Below, in pieces: positions 1,020-19,295 of a stretch of DNA of 64,000 bases. The notes under the pieces were generated by a model, which was given only the letters and a program-made list of their open reading frames with translations, had not been told where the DNA came from and ran no database searches. Where the stretch lies: contig NC_135263.1 of assembly GCF_964204865.1 (NCBI RefSeq), positions 6,634,001-6,698,000 on the forward strand, read 5' to 3'. Source of the DNA: Styela clava (Eukaryota). Position 1 is the stretch's first letter. Each line of letters starts with the position of its first letter. Made by a program: the position numbers and the translations under genes.

Positions 1020-3650
1020 GACAGCATCTGTTTAAGACATAAGATGTTCAAATCTCACCACTTATGCGGCAATAGTTCTCAATCCTCATACTATAAAAAA
1101 TATCGCAATTCACTAACACATGCCATTGAAGATGCTAAACAAATGTATTTTCAAAAATTGATTGCCCAAAACAAAGGCAACCCCAAGTGTACTTGGCGAA
1201 TTGTTAATCAAATAGCATCTACTAAAAATAAAAAAACCAAAAGTGTTAATGAAATTGATTTGGAAAATGGCAGAACCATTAAAGATAAGTCCTTGATTGC
1301 ACAAGAATTCAATAAATATTTTTCCACTGTTGGGTCCAACCTTGGTACTAAATTCTCCAATGATATGGATGGCTTTAAAATATTTCTAAGCAAGCGTGTA
1401 AATCAATCCATATTCTTAAGTCCTGCAACAGTGAATGAACTGACCATGGAAATAGTATGCCTCAATGAGGGTAAAGCGGTTGGCGCTGACAACATTCCCA
1501 GTCGTTTCCTTAAGTATGTGGCAGACATCATAGCACCTTGTATAACTGAGTTTTTTAATAATTCACTTCGATTGGGGATATTTCCATCTTCACTGAAAAT
1601 TGCCAGAGTAATTCCAATCTTCAAATCTGGTAATACAAAACAAATTTCAAATTACAGACCTATATCCATATTATCTGCTGTTGATAAGGTTTTTGAACGT
1701 CTAATTTACAGGAGGCTAATGGACTTCTTTACAAAGCACGATGTTATAAATAAATCACAGTTCGGTTTTCAAAGCAATCACTCCACGTCACATGCCATCT
1801 TAGATACTATTTCTCATATATATGATAAATTAGAGAGGAAAGTATATGTCAGTGCAACATTTCTCGACCTTAAAAAAGCTTTTGATACTGTCAACCACAA
1901 AATTTTAATGTATAAGTTGTGGCATTACGGTATTAGGGGGGTAGCAAATCAACTCCTTACTAGTTATTTGACAAGTAGAACTCAATATGTTCAAATAGGT
2001 ACATATTGCTCCTCTGTCTTACCTGTGACCCATGGGGTTCCCCAGGGTTCGTCCTTGGGTCCGGCTCTGTTCTTAATTTATATTAATGATCTTGCACATA
2101 GCTCCACTCTATTTTCCAAATTATTCGCTGACGATACGAACCTTCTCGATAGTGATAAGTCTCATGTTGTGCTTCAATCCAGAGTGAATACTGAAATACA
2201 AAAGGTTGCTCATTGGATGGAACTTAACAAACTAACATTAAATGTGGATAAATCAAAAACTATGTTGATAACTCCTAAAAAACCAAAACGCATTGATGGT
2301 TTAAAAATCCAAATTGGGGGGACTATTCTGGAAAATGTGGAATCGTATAAATATCTTGGTATCGATATTGACAATAAATTGAACTGGGATATTCACATAT
2401 CCAACATTACCGTTAAATTATCTAAGGCGGTAGGAATGTTGTATAAACTTCGATCATACACCTCAGTGTCAACTTTACGTATGGTTTATTATGCTCTGTT
2501 CCAGTCCCATATCCAATATGGCATTGCGGCCTGGGGTTCAGCAAGCAAAATGTTACTGCATCGTATTGAAGTCATGCAAAACAGGGCAATCCGTGCTCTT
2601 ACACACGCCGGACCTCGGTGCAATTTAGAATCCTACTATTATAAGATGAAAATACTTAAAAATGCAGATATTTATAAAACTGAAGTGCTGAAAATTATGC
2701 ACCAACATCATAATAAAAAACTGCCGGCTGCATTCTCCGGCTATTTTGTTAAGCAAAGCGTCATTCACTCTCATGCAACTCGGTCTTCTGCCAATAGCTC
2801 ATATTATATGACTCGCTATTCATCTAGCCGCACACAAAATTCCATTAAGTTCATTGGTATAAAACTTTGGAATATGCTTCCAGTTACCATACGCTCTAAG
2901 AACTATAATACATTTAAAAAAGAATTAAAAAATCACTACCTCAATGCTTATAACATCCAGTAGTCTAATTCACTGGTCATCAATCCTGTATTTGATGACA
3001 ATTTTGCTGAATGTGATGTTTTTCTTATTTGTTCATATCATTCATTTCCAGTGTTATTGAATATTTTCACTATTCTTCCACAAGCTACGTTACCCCAAAT
3101 CTCTTCGCCGTGTACTTAACCTCTCGTATTGTGATTCTGTTGCCCAAACTTCATTATGTATTTATACCTCCAAAACTAATTCCCTTATTGTGGTTTGCTG
3201 GGAATTCCCCGTAATTTATCTCCGCAAGGCAGCGTCATGTCAATCAGAAGCCCGACAGCTGTGACGGTGCCGACCCGAGCACGACGCTGACGATTTGAGC
3301 ATTTTTTCCCCTCCTGACGCGCTCTTGTTTTTCTCTCGTTTCTCATGATTATCTTCGATTTAACTATTTTCTCCTAACTGACTTCCCCAATTCGACTTAC
3401 ATTTTCCAAATTGTGTTCATTCAAAAAATATATATGTTTAAATCCTGTTTATTTAACTTCATCTGCTGCTGTTTAGAGCTATTTAGGTGTCGCTGACACG
3501 TTAACTTTATAGTTTATTCGCGACTCCTCGTCTATTGCAGTCGAATTATTGTACGTCTGTTATTTCTTCTCTCGATTTATTTTTACTGTTTATATGTACA
3601 ATATTTCTTGCATGACGGAAATAAATATCTGAATCTGAATATCTGAATCT
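1020..3650 (+). mobile_element. 5'-truncated non-LTR retrotransposon (LINE), CR1 group (CR1/Crack/Daphne/L2-like)
   Basis: Contains an RT ORF, then a ~660 bp 3' UTR ending in AATAAA plus the tandem tail ATCTGAATCTGAATATCTGAATCT (~3626-3650). No APE endonuclease or ORF1 upstream. The 5' boundary is approximate. Confidence 0.88.
1044..2963 (+). CDS. LINE ORF2 reverse transcriptase (endonuclease portion lost by truncation; start is an internal Met)
   Basis: Motifs NYRPISIL, QFGF, FLDLKKAFDTVNH, GVPQGSSLGP, LFADD, YKYLGI and the C-terminal KLWNMLP...FKKELK. 639 codons uninterrupted. Confidence 0.92.
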   Translation: MFKSHHLCGNSSQSSYYKKYRNSLTHAIEDAKQMYFQKLIAQNKGNPKCTWRIVNQIASTKNKKTKSVNEIDLENGRTIKDKSLIAQEFNKYFSTVGSNLGTKFSNDMDGFKIFLSKRVNQSIFLSPATVNELTMEIVCLNEGKAVGADNIPSRFLKYVADIIAPCITEFFNNSLRLGIFPSSLKIARVIPIFKSGNTKQISNYRPISILSAVDKVFERLIYRRLMDFFTKHDVINKSQFGFQSNHSTSHAILDTISHIYDKLERKVYVSATFLDLKKAFDTVNHKILMYKLWHYGIRGVANQLLTSYLTSRTQYVQIGTYCSSVLPVTHGVPQGSSLGPALFLIYINDLAHSSTLFSKLFADDTNLLDSDKSHVVLQSRVNTEIQKVAHWMELNKLTLNVDKSKTMLITPKKPKRIDGLKIQIGGTILENVESYKYLGIDIDNKLNWDIHISNITVKLSKAVGMLYKLRSYTSVSTLRMVYYALFQSHIQYGIAAWGSASKMLLHRIEVMQNRAIRALTHAGPRCNLESYYYKMKILKNADIYKTEVLKIMHQHHNKKLPAAFSGYFVKQSVIHSHATRSSANSSYYMTRYSSSRTQNSIKFIGIKLWNMLPVTIRSKNYNTFKKELKNHYLNAYNIQ

Positions 3651-3919
3651 ATGACCATCACATGGTAATTAAAATTAAAAAAAAATTAATAGGGGCTGTG
3701 GAGTATGGAAAGTTCAAGACAAAGAAAAGAACAAATGTTCATAGTTCATGAACTCTCAATTTTGCCTCCATTGCTTTGTGAAGGCCAATATATTTCGAGT
3801 GGCTGAATTGGTTTACCTTTATGATAGCAACGATTTTGTATTTAATATAGCGAGATTATTTCAATTTAATTGAAGTGATATAATTTCCCAAAGCAATGCT
3901 TGAATCGTCTAGAATAGAT

Positions 3920-5105
3920 CAGTGGTGTCAAACTCATGGGTTTTCGAGAGCCGCATTGCATTTTGAAAATTGTAAAAAGAGCCGCAAACAGTTTTTGATA
4001 ATGTATACTTAAAAGATATTTTTAAGATAGTTTTAGTTTGTGACATATATTGTGATGCAACTAAACAGTTGGATTAAGTTTTATTATTTTCTTCAATTTC
4101 AAATGCAATTACATATTAATATTTGCATTCCACTATTATTGCAACATTTGCAAGTTACAGTATTTATTATAAAAAATCGTAAAATTCTATGTACAACCAT
4201 CAAAATCATTTTTGAACAAGCTTTGAATAAGGAAAGAATAATACATACACTAAAAATAACTTATCTAAATATATGAACCTAAAATTAACAAAAATACTAC
4301 AGTATAAACTCAATGTTTTAATAATTACATTTGTCCTGGCGTTTGGCATTTTTTTGTGTCACCAGCATACTAAGGCCAGTCTGAAATGATTTTATAGTAC
4401 CAACTCTAACTAACGAGGCCACATGATCATGGGTTTATCTGGATCTTTACGAATGTTTAATTAATTCCAGTAATGCAAAAAAGTTGCTTTTATCATTTCA
4501 TGTATAGATCAGTAAAAAAACAAATGACAGATTTTTTCGACAAGACATTTCGCACTACATTGCGTGGCATAGGATTGCTTGAATTATTATTGATATTGAT
4601 TTTTAGTAACTAAGTCGTTGTATAATTATATTAATATACAAACACATGGAAATTTTCTGTTCGAAGTTGGTCTTCGAATTTGTCATATTGACTGCTGATC
4701 TTATTGTGTTTTTTGATTGTATTGATGGAAATATGACAAATTAAACAATGTGCTTCAGAATTTTGTGAAGAGCAGAAATGTTACAACTCCCATTTTCTTC
4801 GAAAATGCCACCTTCTTCATGTACTTTGCGTTTAATTTAATTACTCAAGTGTTTTATTCTAGTATTCTTTTGCTAGCTTGATGTGTATTCTTAATTGGGT
4901 CAAAATGTGGACAAAAAAAATCAATATTTCAAAACTACTTTCAGTAAATTGTTTTCTGTGTGAATAATCAATTTCACTTTAGAAGGTTTGAAAAATCTAT
5001 TACATTTAGATAAAAATAAAAACTTCCAAAATACTATTACAATTACTGTTAAGCGTTCGAGGGCCGCACTGAAAGTTCTCTGGGGCCGCGAGTTTGAGAT
5101 CCCTG
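3920..5105 (-). mobile_element. Internally deleted hAT (Charlie/SPIN/Buster-type) transposon
   Basis: Imperfect TIRs CAGTGGTGTCAAACTC / GAGTTTGAGATCCCTG. 8-bp TSD gaatagat / gtatagat (7 of 8). The minus strand keeps a decayed N-terminus (KRKVHEEG..KW..HCLICH, ~4700-4835) and C-terminus (..RSR.THDHVASLVRVG..QK.CQT.GQ, ~4325-4490). Confidence 0.8.
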
Positions 5106-5109
5106 GTAT

Positions 5110-5692
5110 AGATTGAAGTTGTTCAAAAAATATATGATAGTATTTTATCATGAATGATGATTATACCCCTTCCGGAATTTCTTCTATAGTACTACCAAAA
5201 GTTGATGAACCAAATATAACACAGGTGCAGTGAGGTACCCGTAATCCTCATTTTCAAAGCTGTTTTAAGTATGTCTGGCGTGTTTTGTGCCTTTTTACAA
5301 ATAAGACCGCTTATGCAATCTTACGCTTTGGAATTTTTAGTTATTTTCCTCAAGCCCTGCAGGATGTGGGGGCCATACACAACTCTACCGGAGGGTCAAA
5401 TGTCTTTGCATGCCTCCATAGGTTGTTTTTCTATTGCAATTTTCTATTTTCAATTGCATTATATTTCTTGGAATCACACTGTCACTGATATGTCGCCAGA
5501 CTTCTGATATCTCCCCGTCTGCTATAGTTGTCCTGTGAATAAATAATAGGAAATTGAGATTAGACGAATAGTTGAAAGTTTTGCTTTATGTCGGCTTAAT
5601 TTCTTGATTGATATACTTGCTATTTCTGCTATTGCCTCTTGTGCTGCAAGAGTCTCGCAATGCTTAGACAGGTTTGTCCACAACTTTCACAT
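5110..5692 (-). pseudogene. Decayed exon(s) with a C2H2 zinc-finger remnant, probably transposon-derived
   Basis: After a minus-strand TTCAG acceptor (5693-5697) the frame reads CESCGQTCLSIARLLQHKRQ*. A further stop-riddled frame follows a second acceptor near 5533. Confidence 0.35.
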
Positions 5693-6499
5693 CTGAAGAA
5701 AGAGAGGAGATTTATTAATTTTCGTTAAGAATAAATAAAGCAGTCTATATGATTCAGAATGGAAAAGCTAATAAATCCAATTCTCATGTTTTATTTAAAA
5801 AATATTTTACTGAATTTGGTATATAAACCAACTAATAAAAGGGTTTAGTCAGAAAATAACAAGCATTCGTGGCTCCAAATACTTGAGAAATCAGACTATA
5901 CAATATAGACCGGTATGAGTGAAATGTTAGGTGAACTTGTTAACACTTTGATTCAATACGCAAATAAAAGTGAATGCGTAATAGTATGTTACAATGAGCA
6001 GCAATCAACAATGAGTATATATCCTCACTGATTAAAAAAATCTAACTGGAGGTGCATGAACTATTTGAAACCATAAGGGGTAAGTAAATATGTAATTTCG
6101 GCAAATGGGCAACTACGTACCGTACTGAATTAATAACTTCGTAGTATTTGACAAAGGCTGGCTTTCCCACATGTACTTAACAGTGCGATGCCCGGGTCTG
6201 ATATACAACAATGGTATTCACCTTACCTTTTACCGATTTCTTTTTACGCCAACTTTCAAAAATATCATTAAAGTCGACAACAACTGTCAAAGCAGGCACG
6301 AACACCATTCGTGCTACGCCTTGAAAGCAGCACACATCCGCTCGTTTTCGTCTCGTCAAGTATGTGCATTGGAGCGTGCTATCGAATACGATCTTCGGAT
6401 AAAAATGCCGGAGTTGCGCATCATGTTGTTTAATGTCATTGGTCAAACCAAGAAAACAATATATACATACATACATGACAAAATTAAAAAATGTTTTCG

Positions 6500-6565
6500 G
6501 TGCATGACTGGGAGGCAACGATACGACCTTTGGAGGTCATCAGAGTCAGTTACCACCCAATTCAA
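6500..6565 (-). repeat. Short dispersed repeat (retroelement 3' end, same family as 16620 and 59190)
   Basis: actgggaggcaacgatacgacctttggaggtcatcagagtcagttacc matches 59282-59325 directly and 16635-16685 in reverse complement. Confidence 0.6.
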
Positions 6566-7104
6566 TAAACATAAAAAATAAATAACAGGTTCGGTGTCAA
6601 TCTATTAATACCTCTCATGTTTGTTTACTATATACAATATTTACATGTTTTATTATCAAAGCGAAAACTATGGTATACGGTTCTTTCAACTGACCGAAAT
6701 TCGCCACATATTGAATTTGATTTCCAAAATATAAACTGCTTAGTGGAGCCCAGGTACTCTAATAAGATACGATTTATTAGGGTTATTTGTAAACTTATGG
6801 GTGAAGATAAGTTAAAACAGAACATGCAGGATTTTGAACAAGGGTGGAGTTCCATTATAACATACACATACTAGTGTTATATAATCAGAAGCACGGGTTG
6901 GATCATCGAAACAATACAGATTTTTGTTGTATACAAAATGCATTTATTTGGACAAGGCCATTCATGCAAATATTTAGGTAAAGTGTTGACTTAGCAAAAA
7001 TAAATTAATATTAAATTCAATATAATCAATACAGTCGATAATAAACTATAAATCAAGTGAATGAAAGACACACAGTTGGCAAAAAAGTTGACTTGATATA
7101 GGAA

Positions 7105-7612
7105 TATAATTATAGGATGCAATATTTTATAACCTTATGTAAAATGATTTTGGACACTTTGAATATAAACATTAAATAGAAGTGTGATTACACAGAACAT
7201 ATACAATTCATTAGTCCAGGCCATTCATGCAGATTAGATTGAACAGGGAGCTCAATGAAGAAGTATTGTGATTTGATTAACAAATTTAGGGATGATGGAA
7301 ATGAGCTTTTAGCTTGGCATATTCACTTAATAAAATAGAGAATGTAACATTTTATAACACGATTTGGGACAATTTGATGGCGAACATTTAAGTCATAATC
7401 GAATTGTAAGAATATATGAACTCATTTTACAGAGAAAGTATCATGAATGCAATATAAGCTCGGCATATTAGCCCTAGGAATAAAAAATGAAGAATGCAAC
7501 ATTTTACAACATGATTTGGCACACGATAAATATGAACATTTAATAACAGTAATCAAATATAAAAATAGAGAGTTAAAGTTGCTTAGGAGATATCATGGAT
7601 GTAATATAAGGT
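7105..7612 (+). repeat. Diverged tandem units of roughly 150-200 bp; possibly a decayed leucine-rich-repeat coding region
   Basis: Units share agct(t/c)ggcatatt...aatg(t/c)aacatttta(t/c)aaca(c/t)gatttgg...gaacatttaa...atcatg(a/g)atg(c/t)aatataag. Translation gives repeated 'xCNI' motifs, interrupted by stops. Confidence 0.4.
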
Positions 7613-8568
7613 TAAATTTGGTTTTAGAGCAGCAAAGTACAACACACGATATGTAACATTGGTGAATATAGCGAAGGATTGCAAACATAGCTGTTGGACT
7701 GAGAATGCTACTGGCTGTGTGTTTCGGTATTTACTATTAGATTTGTATCTCGTGATATCAACACGATCAAGGCCCGTCCACCGGAATTAAAGAAGTTTAT
7801 GGATAAAAGATTGGATTTAAAGTTTGTGTTTGGCAGTCGTCGGGTGCGGTCGCATTTTTGAACGGCGCAGAAAGATTAGATTGACAACAATGAACCAGCA
7901 CTTAAGGAATATCAACAAGCAAAGGCCGAAATATGAAATTACATGGCAGCATAAAGGCAACATACGGACATCATAACAGAATCGAAAGATGAATACATCA
8001 GGGATTGATTCAGATATTTTATTTTGTGACAAAGAGTATGATATACTGCTATTTCTAGAAATTCCGCTTGAATAGGCCTACTAAGTATTCAACTATATAT
8101 GTGTAAATAGTTTGCAGTGTAACATTTTTAAACATTCATTTAGTGGCATATTTTTTATTTGTTCTCTCTGTGTGTATACCGGTACTGTTTTAACAATGTT
8201 GGCCACGTCAATGTATCAATTAGGCTACAGACCTGCTCGCGTGTGATTAGTGTTTTTCCTAATAATTGCTTTTATGAGTGTCCGCACACCGAATTTGCCG
8301 CCACGGTTTTGCGTTTGTTTGTATATTAAACCACTTATCACCTTTTCCGCAATGCCCAATCTAGCAATCTGTGTAGTTTTTCATGGCTTGGTTTTTCTTA
8401 AAGCTTTCATGGCTTCATGAGTATGACTATCGTCGCAAATTTATCACATTCCACTCCCCACATTATCTTTGCATGAGGTTGTAGGTATTGGTCATTATCA
8501 ACGTAATTGTTGAAAGAGAGTACAACAGCCCGAAAGTTTATTACTATCGTGTATTTTGTTTGAAACTA

Positions 8569-8770
8569 CCGTATTTTACGGACCAAAAACCGGCCTCGTA
8601 AGCAGGGACGCCTAAAGTATGGGTAAGGTAGTGCTTTAATCATTACTGCCTACACTTGAAACCAGTAGGCCTACCTGTTGCGCCTTATAGCCCCAGTAGC
8701 CCTTATGTATGGACGAAACCCCAATACAAGCAAATTATTGAAGGCGCGCCCTATTGTCCGTAAAATACGG
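8569..8770. mobile_element. pogo/Tigger-type (Tc1/mariner superfamily) MITE
   Basis: Perfect 15-bp TIR CCGTATTTTACGGAC / GTCCGTAAAATACGG, flanked by TA on both sides (8567-68, 8771-72). Confidence 0.85.
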
Positions 8771-9798
8771 TATTCTAGGCAAATTGATATTACTCTTTAT
8801 AGTTTATAAGATTGAAAAAAGACATCGTGGGAATTTTCTCAATCTCAATATTATTGGACACGTGAGTGGACCTATGGATCGTTTTCATATTTTTGGTAAT
8901 CTTGTTCTTGTTGGTCTTCTTCGTATCGTTTAGAAAAAAATCGCTTTTCTCTTTGACTAGTGGACCAATTGCTTTGAAATTTTCAGTGAGTAAATATTAT
9001 ATTTTTCGCTAGAAGGCTATTACTCTTATTTATGTGCTATGACACCATCAAACTTTGCCACTATGTGACGATACGTGTCCATATATTTGAGCGTAGCTGT
9101 CTTGTTATATATATTGCCATGAACGAATCATGGTTCTTAACCTTTAACTGACTGCCTACCATTTCAGTGTTTTTACTCTGGCCGTGTACCACCGACAACG
9201 CTTTTATTGCGCTATGGGAGTATTTTGTAATGTGTATGCTGGGGGTCGGCAACCTACGGCCCGCGACGCGTTACTGAATTATCGTAACAAAACGATTATT
9301 TATTTATTGTGAGGCACGTGTAGACTAAATTATAACTTAACAAGTATATAATTTGTAATTACTCATTTAATGAGCCTATTATTCAATTATAATTTCACAA
9401 ATGGCAACAAACGCAGCGCACATAATATCCGAATGGAATGTTTTGAAATGCAATGAGGGAATAAATTTACAATTTGACAGATGTATCAATGCTTGGTGAA
9501 TTGGATAATTTTATAATATGTTATTGTGACGTGACACGCAAGACGAACGTGGACATGCCCGTTTCGTTTTCAGTTGGTAGTAGCGCTGTAACGGGCGAGG
9601 GCGATCTCTGAAGATAAGGATTCGTAGAGCTATAAGCGCCGCCAGCGAATACATACAGTGTGAAGCGTTGTCGGCATATTTTAGCCAACTCAAAAGTTAA
9701 TTAACAGTTGAGGTTGCGTGAAACTAACTACCTTCCCTTGCTCTATATGCCTTTGCGCAGGTGGATCCGTATGCGTATTACGCAAGGATGCTGTAGTC

Positions 9799-16782: not shown

Positions 16783-18214
16783 TTAAAAAATAACGGCATT
16801 ATCAGGGTAGAAACGGTTTAATTATTTCAAATTAGCATATTTTGCCAAGTCAAGGGATAGAGATTTTCAAATTTAGAAAAATCGTTCATTCGGCTGTTTT
16901 TAATTTACAACTTCTTAAACGGAAAATACTTGCGACAAGAAACATTAACCCGATTTACAAATAAATAAATGTTAGTTTAAAAATAAAATTTGAAACAATG
17001 AATTATTTTCCGATTCGAGGTCCCTTGAAGCTTGAGGTACCTACCTTGCCATTTGGCGAATCTAGCACTGACCCGGTGTCATAGGACTAGCGTGTTCATA
17101 TGCGTTCACATATGATTTTTCAATGGACACACATAAATAATATGCAACTTGATAATACAGTTTGTATTGTCCTTTCACTAATCTATACATATATACCGGA
17201 ATAATGTTTTGTAACATTTAAATTAAAAACCTTGGTAGTGTAGATTATTTTTCTCAACTATCAGTCCATTCACGAATACTGACGTTTGTATTTCGCTTAC
17301 CTTTGAATATCTTTAAAATTTAGCTATATTTTTGTGCCAACCCTTTTTTGGTGGTCTAGGCACTTCCTGGTTATTTTGCCAAACTATTAGTCTCAAATAC
17401 CGTAGCTTGCAATCTTCATGTATTTTTGCGCTGGGTGGAATACGAACTTTTACCTGACTGTAGACATATCGGAAAAACATTCAATCCAATTTCGTCACTT
17501 CATGGTATTTCATAACTTTTCTCGTTTCTAATTTTGATCCTCAAATAATGTTAAATTTATTCTGGTGGAAATTATTCTTTACCAACTATAGTACTCATAA
17601 ACACTGGTTCTTTTTAAATTAAAGATTTGACACAAACGATACCAGCTTTTCCGCGGAACTCGACAATTCTCAACGATTAATTTGCTCACACAAATACGAA
17701 AATGTTCAAGCAAACCTTCAAAAATAGTTCTATCGCCTCGAGCGATGTAGACTCATTACGGAATGATTTTGAAGTAAATGAAAGGTAGAGTTTAACATAA
17801 TTATTGCTTGGAAATAATTAACAAATGAAGACTAGCGAAAAACAATAGTTCAAATGATGTCATTTATACTGATAAGCTAACTAGGCACTCAACTTGTGTA
17901 GTCAAAACGCCTTCTCTACTTTTGTTATTTTTAAACATAGGCGTGTCGTAATATAAATTAAACTAGCAGCATTGAAACGGAAAACGTCAACGTGATCAGA
18001 AAGTCGATATAATGGCTCAGCTGCACGGCAAATGATGTTACCAGTTCGTACAGATCGGTTCAAAAGATATTGCCAATCTTTTACACACTTCGACCCATGG
18101 CCTACATCCAGAGGTGCGGCAGCGAGCGTATTTCTAACTAACGCTTAGCACGATTCGAATTAGAACGTCGTGAACAATGTCATTCAGAACATATGTTACC
18201 CATTGAGATGATGT

Positions 18215-18665
18215 TACCCCAGGAATAGTTTTTTTCATACCAAAAATCAAAACTTTCTTCCCTGAACTATGGAATGGAATGGAATTTCGAGGGTCAATTG
18301 TCGGGTGTGGTGATCTCACGTTTCTGCGTTTTTAATAAAGGATAACATTTTTATATTTATGGAGAAGAAATTTTATAAGACGGCGTATTCATATGGCGAA
18401 CCACGACCACTCGTCCGGGATATATATGTAAATCATACCCAAGGATAATTCTTTTACGCTAAAAATCAAAACTTTCTTCATTGAACCAGAGCCATTATAT
18501 AACGGTTATATAATGGCTCTGATTGAACTATGGAATGTAATTTTGAGGGTCAAAGGTCGGGCAAACATCCCTATACTGCCCTATATTGACCAGTTTGTGG
18601 TGATCTCGCGTTTCTGCTATTTTAATAAAAGATAAAATTTTCTATAAGAAATTCTATAAGACGAG
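18215..18665. repeat. Local direct duplication of a ~150 bp unit
   Basis: aaaaatcaaaactttcttc...gaactatggaatg...gagggtcaa...tgtggtgatctc.cgtttctgc...tttaataaa.gataa...tataagacg occurs at ~18242-18383 and ~18461-18663. Confidence 0.75.
18487..18521. mobile_element. 35-bp perfect palindrome in 7-bp direct repeats (putative P-type excision footprint)
   Basis: CAGAGCCATTATATAAC-G-GTTATATAATGGCTCTG flanked by ATTGAAC (18480-86, 18522-28). Absent from the sister copy of the duplication near 18260. Confidence 0.75.
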
Positions 18666-18794
18666 TGTTCGGACAGTGCAAATATGATATCGCTATCCGT
18701 TACAAACATTTGGGTTCACGCAGGCTCGAATGTGGAGATATGTTTATCAACAATCACAGATAATGCAACAGGCTCGATCAGGATAGGATAGGAT

Positions 18795-19295
18795 GACTCG
18801 GCGGTGTGGCGCATCGTGCTAAGCGTTAGGAATACGCTCGCCACCGCATCTCTGATTACTTGGTGCAGGTAGTACTGGTACCGGTACCGGTTGTGTAGGA
18901 CCGTCTCACGGAATTTTATGAGATCAGCGAACCGGTTAGCATTACATGACTTTTTGTAACAGAACCGCCTGAAAATATGACATTTGTATGATAGAACCGG
19001 CTGACACAAAATTTAAATCCCACCACTGCCTTGGGGGGGGGGGGGGTTCGCAGGTTCGAATCCCATGAAAGATGTGCGAGAGGATTGCTGGACTCGTCGC
19101 CGCCGTAGGGTGGTTCACGTAACTGCTGGTCGGTTACGGGTTCCACCACCATCATGTCCATGCTTCTGAAAACAAAATAACTGGCTAACTAATCCCATAG
19201 GTACCCGACCTGGACGTGAGGCCGTGGTTCGCCATATGATTAAGTCGTCTTATCGGCTTTCCTCTCCCCCGGGATAAATATGTAAATCCTATCCT
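18795..19295 (+). mobile_element. tRNA-derived SINE, interrupted by a ~170 bp insertion
   Basis: A-box-like TGGCGCATCGTG, B-box GGTTCGAATCC (19053-63), body shared with the 24045 copy, and tail gtaaatcctatcct. The insert (~18870-19045) ends in a hAT-like terminus AATCCCACCACTG. Confidence 0.8.

Follow-up and report, generated by a model that had tools for sequence, protein, structure and literature searches.

A probable P-superfamily excision scar in Styela clava and the 17-nucleotide cut suggested by the scars of two transposon families

In the window, that is, the whole stretch of 64,000 nucleotides of Styela clava DNA that was analysed (C18:6634001-6698000 of the 377-Mb assembly that was searched), a 35-bp palindrome at positions 18487-18521 was interpreted as the donor-site scar of an excised DNA transposon of the P superfamily, in which two 17-nt 3' tails were joined with one base added; the probability of this reading was put at roughly 0.8. 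The scars of two P families found in this genome stop at 17 nt per side, from which it is likely, judging by sequence, that the two enzymes share the 17-base staggered cut of the fruit-fly P element. In the fly, the footprints of P elements and the stagger of 17 nt are both textbook knowledge, and the scar in the window is a known kind of footprint. Nothing else about the way P elements are cut is as odd as this stagger.

The palindrome and its tandem host units

A preliminary description of the window had reported a perfect palindrome with 17-bp arms and a 1-nt spacer between two copies of ATTGAAC, and this structure was recovered exactly at 18480-18528. The features of the site and of the tandem units around it are as follows.

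18480..18486, no strand: left copy of the target-site duplication, ATTGAAC, identical to 18522-18528
18487..18503, plus strand: left arm of 17 nt, CAGAGCCATTATATAAC, identical to the first 17 positions of the parent family's terminal inverted repeat
18504..18504, no strand: extra junction base G; position 18 of the repeat is T, hence the base does not come from the repeat
18505..18521, minus strand: right arm of 17 nt, GTTATATAATGGCTCTG, exact reverse complement of the left arm
18522..18528, no strand: right copy of the target-site duplication, ATTGAAC, as read in the sequence
18261..18267, no strand: CCTGAAC, the empty site of the paralogous sister unit, with a single target and no palindrome
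18441..18666, no strand: tandem unit B, host of the scar, from repeat detection and unit alignment
18222-18385, no strand: tandem unit A, sister of unit B, from repeat detection and unit alignment

Inverted-repeat detection returned palindrome arms at 18481-18503 and 18505-18527 with a spacer of 1 base. The 17-mer of the left arm occurred twice in the window, both times in the scar, where 0.23 occurrences would be expected even at 3 mismatches. Elsewhere in the window, sequences close to that of the arm (at 18009, 31374 and 49683) were rejected, being without a partner arm or duplication.

Unit A carries the target once, in the context ...CTTTCTTC CCTGAAC TATGG..., and the earlier claim of a sister unit without the insertion was thus borne out, as a paralogue and not as an allele. 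Over their alignment the two units have a similarity of only about 76%, and 2 of the 7 target bases are different; the empty site was therefore taken as a diverged paralogue rather than an empty allele. At the scar, unit B has 42 bp more than unit A (35 plus the second target copy). Another stretch of 34 bp in unit B, at 18562-18595, is also missing from unit A. When paralogues of the host flank were sought in the genome, nothing was found beyond a common repeat of 39 nt, the flank being otherwise unique.

The 35-mer was unchanged in contigs from two public runs of the same study, and it is therefore not an error peculiar to one assembly. A Hi-C run from another sample covered the window site at 0-2x, and those reads contained no alternative allele. 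Near the tandem units, read and contig coverage was excessive by orders of magnitude at 18366-18437, at 18774-18850 and over an inverted pair (18109-18157 and 18810-18854), and loose ends resemble the 3' part of a tRNA. These stretches look like a very abundant short repeat that surrounds the units in inverted copies.

The parent family and the identity of its transposase

As the preliminary description had anticipated, the arm is not unique to the window: the 17-mer gave 68 exact matches in the genome (42 forward, 26 reverse), and the reversed control gave 0. After identical copies were merged, 59 distinct oriented arms were obtained with this query, which detects only arms of at least 17 nt; 25 of them continue with TAGTCT into long elements and 34 stop at 17, in agreement with the arm ceiling near 17 nt that had been predicted. 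Among the 34 stopping arms, a chance or overlap match extends to position 18 in 8 arms and to position 19 in one (L009). The long elements start with the same 17 nt as the scar arms, followed by TAGTCTGGAAG, and the two ends of this family (family 1) have in common a terminal repeat of 28 bp, CAGAGCCATTATATAACTAGTCTGGAAG, so that position 17 falls inside the repeat. Seven long copies with both ends (0.7-14 kb) were found, all of them flanked by perfect 7-bp duplications.

L031: 3,649 bp, duplication ATGAGAC
L032: 3,745 bp, duplication GTATAAG
L033: 4,173 bp, duplication GTATGTG
L034: 6,028 bp, duplication GTTCAAC
L036: 680 bp, duplication CTCACAC
Copy on C2: 14,089 bp, duplication GTTTGGG
L084: 5,945 bp, duplication GTTTTAA

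The copy L084 (C14), at 3385-9329, is bounded on each side by the 28-bp repeat, the left one with 1 substitution, and its right end is the exact 17-mer. The 680-bp copy is a deletion derivative that still carries subterminal sequence, and the 14-kb copy on C2 is enlarged by a retrotransposon-like frame of 1,132 aa. A tandem array with repeats of about 95-100 kb was noticed at C19:5.35-6.73 Mb, with one flank present in 12 copies; at this duplicated flank the long family-1 element was present in 12 of 12 copies, and no scarred copy was found.

The transposase was not visible in the first long copies. When 94 frames from L034 were compared with Pfam (E up to 0.1), nothing relevant and no hAT domain was found, and tblastn with the intact P transposase of the genome gave no match in these copies. 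The first long copies are without the transposase core, which was present only in L082, L083 and L084. A 173-aa frame common to the first long copies led to these fuller copies on C8, C13 and C14. On the minus strand of L084, the following domains were obtained in order from the right end: THAP (PF05485), Tnp_P_element HTH (PF12017) with TNP-like_RNaseH_N (PF21787), TNP-like_GBD (PF21788), and TNP-like_RNaseH_C (PF21789). By Pfam, L082 showed the identical order except that THAP was absent. The scores in both copies were 18.7-22 bits, each under the curated cut-off of 23-24.8; the domains are P-specific, colinear, and present in two copies. Furthermore, tblastn of the genome's intact 834-aa P transposase against L082 gave three colinear matches over aa 327-594 (E 1e-8).

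The core of the family-1 transposase is present in three copies (C14, C8 and C13), and in none of them does an open frame in that region exceed 100 aa; the core matches on C8 and C13 contain a stop, and the frames there are fragmentary. Since these are the only core copies and all are without an open frame, the parent was taken to be a decayed element of the P superfamily. The broken frames show the decay of the copies and are not evidence against P kinship. In family 1, the domain order, the duplications of 7-8 bp and the short terminal inverted repeats are those of the P superfamily, and an intact catalytic frame was not found. The long element with these termini and THAP and P-transposase domains that had been predicted thus exists, as decayed relics only.

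Opposite the decayed transposase, on the other strand, lies a conserved frame of 173-267 aa (L082 5861-6661, plus; L084 3770-4483, plus; L034 1545-2063, plus). The 267-aa form (P0001) had no Pfam match, and an identity as SpoIVA was rejected, the protein-atlas matches being under recognition level. In hhalign, the facing frame resembled the THAP9_C region of the intact enzyme weakly (P 0.068). Next to the family-1 copy of L083, at 7408-9759 (minus), a frame of 784 aa was observed for a DEAD-box helicase similar to vasa/DDX4, with four zinc knuckles of the CCHC type. In an atlas comparison, the DDX4-like gene pointed to an animal without narrowing the taxon further, and the genome gave one match just over the cut-off to the cellulose-synthase family, which among animals is not known outside tunicates.

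A hAT-type or other cut-and-paste element as the parent, with the scar as the footprint of that family, is scarcely credible on this evidence. Termini of the CAGAG type are also known from hAT elements such as hobo and Hermes, and a stretch at 3119-3457 of L034 ('FLCERTFS') recalls, by eye, the hAT dimerisation domain. This stretch, however, lies in a part of L034 that is missing from L032, and the 94 frames of L034 had no hAT match even at E up to 0.1, whereas the domains that were detected are P-specific and colinear. Most copies, moreover, have duplications of 7 bp and not 8 bp. When a hAT element excises, the flanking ends form hairpins and nothing of the repeat is left; the scars described here retain repeat sequence, unlike hAT footprints.

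Forms of the family-1 scars and the joining of the tails

Short remnants of family 1 were collected with the pattern CAGAGCC, 0-30 nt, GGCTCTG, which gave 84 sites against 5 in the reversed control, 50 of the 84 being listed. Many short remnants had been predicted, and these 84 sites of 14-44 bp agree with the prediction, with the reservation that some are unrelated. Among the matches listed, family-1 scars range from 14 to 54 bp in graded form, and some fillers are derived from the arm. The forms were as follows.

Perfect 24-bp palindrome, CAGAGCCATTATATAATGGCTCTG: 22 sites, control 0
"17+7", different from the 24-mer palindrome only by C at position 17: 12 exact sites and 6 with a substitution in the short arm
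17+4: 3 sites, with a common 1-nt overlap
25-mers, which parse as 17+8 or 18+7: 2 sites
16+16: 1 site (L152)
17+5+8: 1 site
Scars with fillers templated from the arm: 2 (L049 and L153)
17+1+17: 2 sites (the window and L035)

A 0+17 form was also present. The junction base C of L035 corresponds to the G of the window on the opposite strand, and the two 35-mers are therefore one sequence. The double variant, which would combine G at 8 with C at 17 in the same strand, had no site (0, against 22 and 12 for the other forms). Six imperfect palindromes of 39-40 bp, CAGAGCCCC...GGGGCTCTG (L146-L151), were rejected as scars; they have flanking sequence in common and duplications are absent, and they are thus part of another repeat family.

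The flanks of 39 scars were compared, and the 7-bp duplication was identical (7/7) in 29, differed by one mismatch in 5 and by two in 1, while 3 fitted 8 bp and 1 was nested, as would be expected from the 7-bp duplications foreseen for such remnants. Except for two duplicated groups (L017=L018; L085=L086=L098), all scars had unrelated flanks. The nested case, L154 (G000 C17:12466469-12466696), is a 17+7 scar with the duplication GTGGTAT whose long arm holds a 14-bp 7+7 scar with ATATAAC; here an element appears to have inserted into an old scar and later to have excised again. Two pairs of scars, each scar with its own duplication, lie 90 bp apart (L010, 1501 and 1591) and 117 bp apart (L094, 1384 and 1501), which would fit local hopping. 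An occupied allele or paralogue was found for none of the scars, either in the C19 array or in the reads at the window (0-2x).

The limit of the arms was examined in the same collection. When both arms were required to be at least 18 nt within 30 nt, the genome search returned 0 sites. Of 22 sites of 25-44 bp, 11 clearly had family arms, and none of these was unambiguously over 17, the two 25-mers being ambiguous (18+7 or 17+8) and L009 matching to position 19. As in a P-type footprint, both copies of the target are kept around sequence derived from the repeat, and the arms are P termini of the same genome with at most 17 nt.

In the proposed mechanism, the transposase would cut the 3' strand at the end of the element and the 5' strand 17 nt inside, and cellular end joining would then seal two identical, non-complementary tails. 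The 3' polarity of the tails is assumed from the known chemistry of P elements and not from the scars. Because positions 9-16 (TTATATAA) are palindromic, the two tails could pair on this core and would give a product of 24 bp. Such pairing would set the terminal C17 opposite A8 of the other tail, in a duplex of 17+17-10 = 24 bp. If the mismatched 3' C were trimmed before extension, the perfect 24-bp palindrome would result; if it were extended instead, the product would be the "17+7" form. The double form could not arise without mismatch repair, and its count of 0 sites fits the model. At the scar in the window, the tails would have remained unpaired, and both would have been retained whole with one base added.

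The perfect 24-mer alone does not demand 17-nt tails, since its sequence would also be produced by a deletion between cores or by blunt joining as 12+12. It could accordingly be argued that the short palindromes are internal deletions at the 8-bp core (slippage, single-strand annealing or abortive gap repair) and not products of the cut, in which case the arm lengths would reflect microhomology and say nothing on the position of the cut. The commonest scar, the 24-mer at 22 sites, is indeed the expected product of a core-core deletion at TTATATAA, internally deleted copies exist (L036 of 680 bp; L032 compared with L034), and repair in wild-type Drosophila is mostly synthesis-dependent, followed by end joining (PMC2895639). 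Such deletions, however, leave unexplained the 18 "17+7" scars, which keep one base (C17) past the core, and the missing double variant; they fail for the two 17+1+17 scars, whose joints lack homology, and also for the 17+4, 17+5+8 and 0+17 forms. They further predict arms spread above 17, and none were found. A tail ending exactly at 17 is needed for the 18 "17+7", two 17+1+17, 17+4, 17+5+8 and 0+17 scars, and internal deletion was considered unlikely.

Alternatively, the palindromes of 24 and 35 bp might be very short MITEs moved by the transposase of the family, each inserted with its own 7-bp duplication, and the identical 24-mers at 22 sites, most of which have perfect and differing duplications, as well as the identity of both 35-mers on opposite strands, could be read in this way. 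This was judged very unlikely, since the many graded forms with fillers copied from the arm suit repair junctions rather than copies of one master, and what stands at position 17 of the "17+7" form is the letter of the full-length repeat rather than a chance substitution. On a unit of 24 bp, two cuts lying 17 nt in from the ends would run past each other, and the Drosophila P element requires more than 100 bp per end for movement (quoted in PMC1562414). The 35-mer, in addition, has 2 copies only, and the scars hold only letters of the repeat and fillers, with no subterminal sequence. Repair of cut donor sites was therefore retained as the reading of the palindromes.

A second family and comparison with known P-type systems

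An intact P family (family 2) served as a replicate. Its copies L039-L042 (C9:2461391, C13:4852609, C6:11274482 and C10:888787) are about 5.4 kb long and 98-99% alike, with transposase frames of 750-834 aa and 8-bp duplications, and the five P/THAP9 Pfam domains were found above the cut-off; from these features, the family may still be active. Its open frame of 822-834 aa lies, for example, at 4514-7015 of L039. With its other termini and its 8-bp duplications, family 2 was rejected as the parent of the scar in the window. Another P-like group (L076 and L077), 49% identical to the intact family, was set aside, having no clear ends.

The scar pattern of family 2 gave 23 sites against 0 in the control, and the 8-bp duplication was perfect in 16 of the 23. 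The commonest scar was 34 bp long, equal to 17+17 (4 exact and 1 with a substitution), although its parse ranges from 14+20 to 19+15 owing to a 5-nt overlap. Two 32-mers are accounted for by tail ends that overlap by 2 nt (AT), and the 26-mers by an overlap of 4 nt within the tails. Arms of exactly 17, with a next base that is not that of position 18, were seen in L131, L135, L136, L139 and L143, whereas a 36-mer (L133) and a 43-mer (L141) can be explained only by an arm of 19 nt or by a filler rich in AT. Among the 23 scars, none (0/23) carried the letters of left-end positions 20-22 or those from right-end position 21 onward.

The transposase of the Drosophila P element cuts the 3' strand at the end of the element and the 5' strand 17 nt inside, and leaves on each flank a 17-nt 3' tail, the tails being identical and not complementary (PMC7776569, PMC2895639). 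The junctions recorded for P{wa} (Tables 1-3 of PMC2895639) comprise short microhomology, blunt 17+17 joins, insertions of 1-3 nt and templated insertions, and joins such as 16+1+17 and 17+2+17, of the class to which the scar in the window belongs, are included. In these respects the scars of Styela clava are alike: both target copies are kept, the repeat-derived arms are at most 17 nt per side, and the joint classes match those in the portions of the fly data covered. The cut also lies within a repeat of about 30 bp in both (31 bp in the fly, 28 bp in family 1). In contrast, the fly and family 2 have duplications of 8 bp and family 1 of 7 bp, and the fly termini are CATGATG, whereas the Styela clava families begin with CAGAG or CAC. 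The 8-nt palindrome in the family-1 tail, moreover, would funnel most repair into one product of 24 bp, unlike in the fly. The fly junctions come from an assay, while the evidence described here consists of fossil scars, and the host is a sea squirt.

Duplications of 7 bp, as in family 1, are known from Galileo and 1360, of a Drosophila branch of the P superfamily (PMC4168063, PMC2775673), although the repeats of Galileo are very long and foldback-like, in contrast to the 28-bp repeat of family 1. P-like genes are known in Ciona and vertebrates (PMC7776569). Zebrafish Pdre2 and vertebrate THAP9 likewise represent P-type transposases outside insects (PMC10983969), and family 2, with 8-bp duplications and all five P/THAP9 Pfam domains, is similar to Pdre2, which differs in its repeats of 13 bp (PMC10983969). 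For the zebrafish enzyme, the sections of PMC10983969 covered report activity without a mapped cleavage offset, whereas here an offset of 17 nt is suggested by the scars. The preliminary description had proposed that a P/THAP9-type transposase outside insects makes the 17-nt cut, and the scars of both families support this proposal, as an inference.

In the parts of PMC7776569 and PMC10983969 covered, the 17-nt stagger is documented for the Drosophila enzyme alone. A full-text literature search found no P-type scars or mapped stagger outside flies; its coverage ended short of the supplementary junction figures for zebrafish and of Kimbacher et al. 2009, reportedly on the P-like elements of Ciona.

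If the reading of the scars is correct, the cut of the fly P element is also made by two diverged P families in an animal other than an insect, and the behaviour of human and fish THAP9 would be predicted from it. A cut shared by diverged families would mean that the stagger is tied to the conserved fold (RNase H with the GTP-binding insert) and not to the fly element. We lean, with a good deal of reserve, towards the view that the 17-nt cut is a fixed ancestral property of the P/THAP9 superfamily, kept in the chordate lineage by two strongly diverged families. Were this so, donor-site scars in any genome would serve as a ruler of cleavage geometry without biochemistry, extinct transposases included. 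The family-1 scars would, in addition, document cleanly, and from nature, how long 3' tails that are not complementary are joined: by pairing at a palindrome within the tail, by extending a mismatched 3' end, and with templated fillers.
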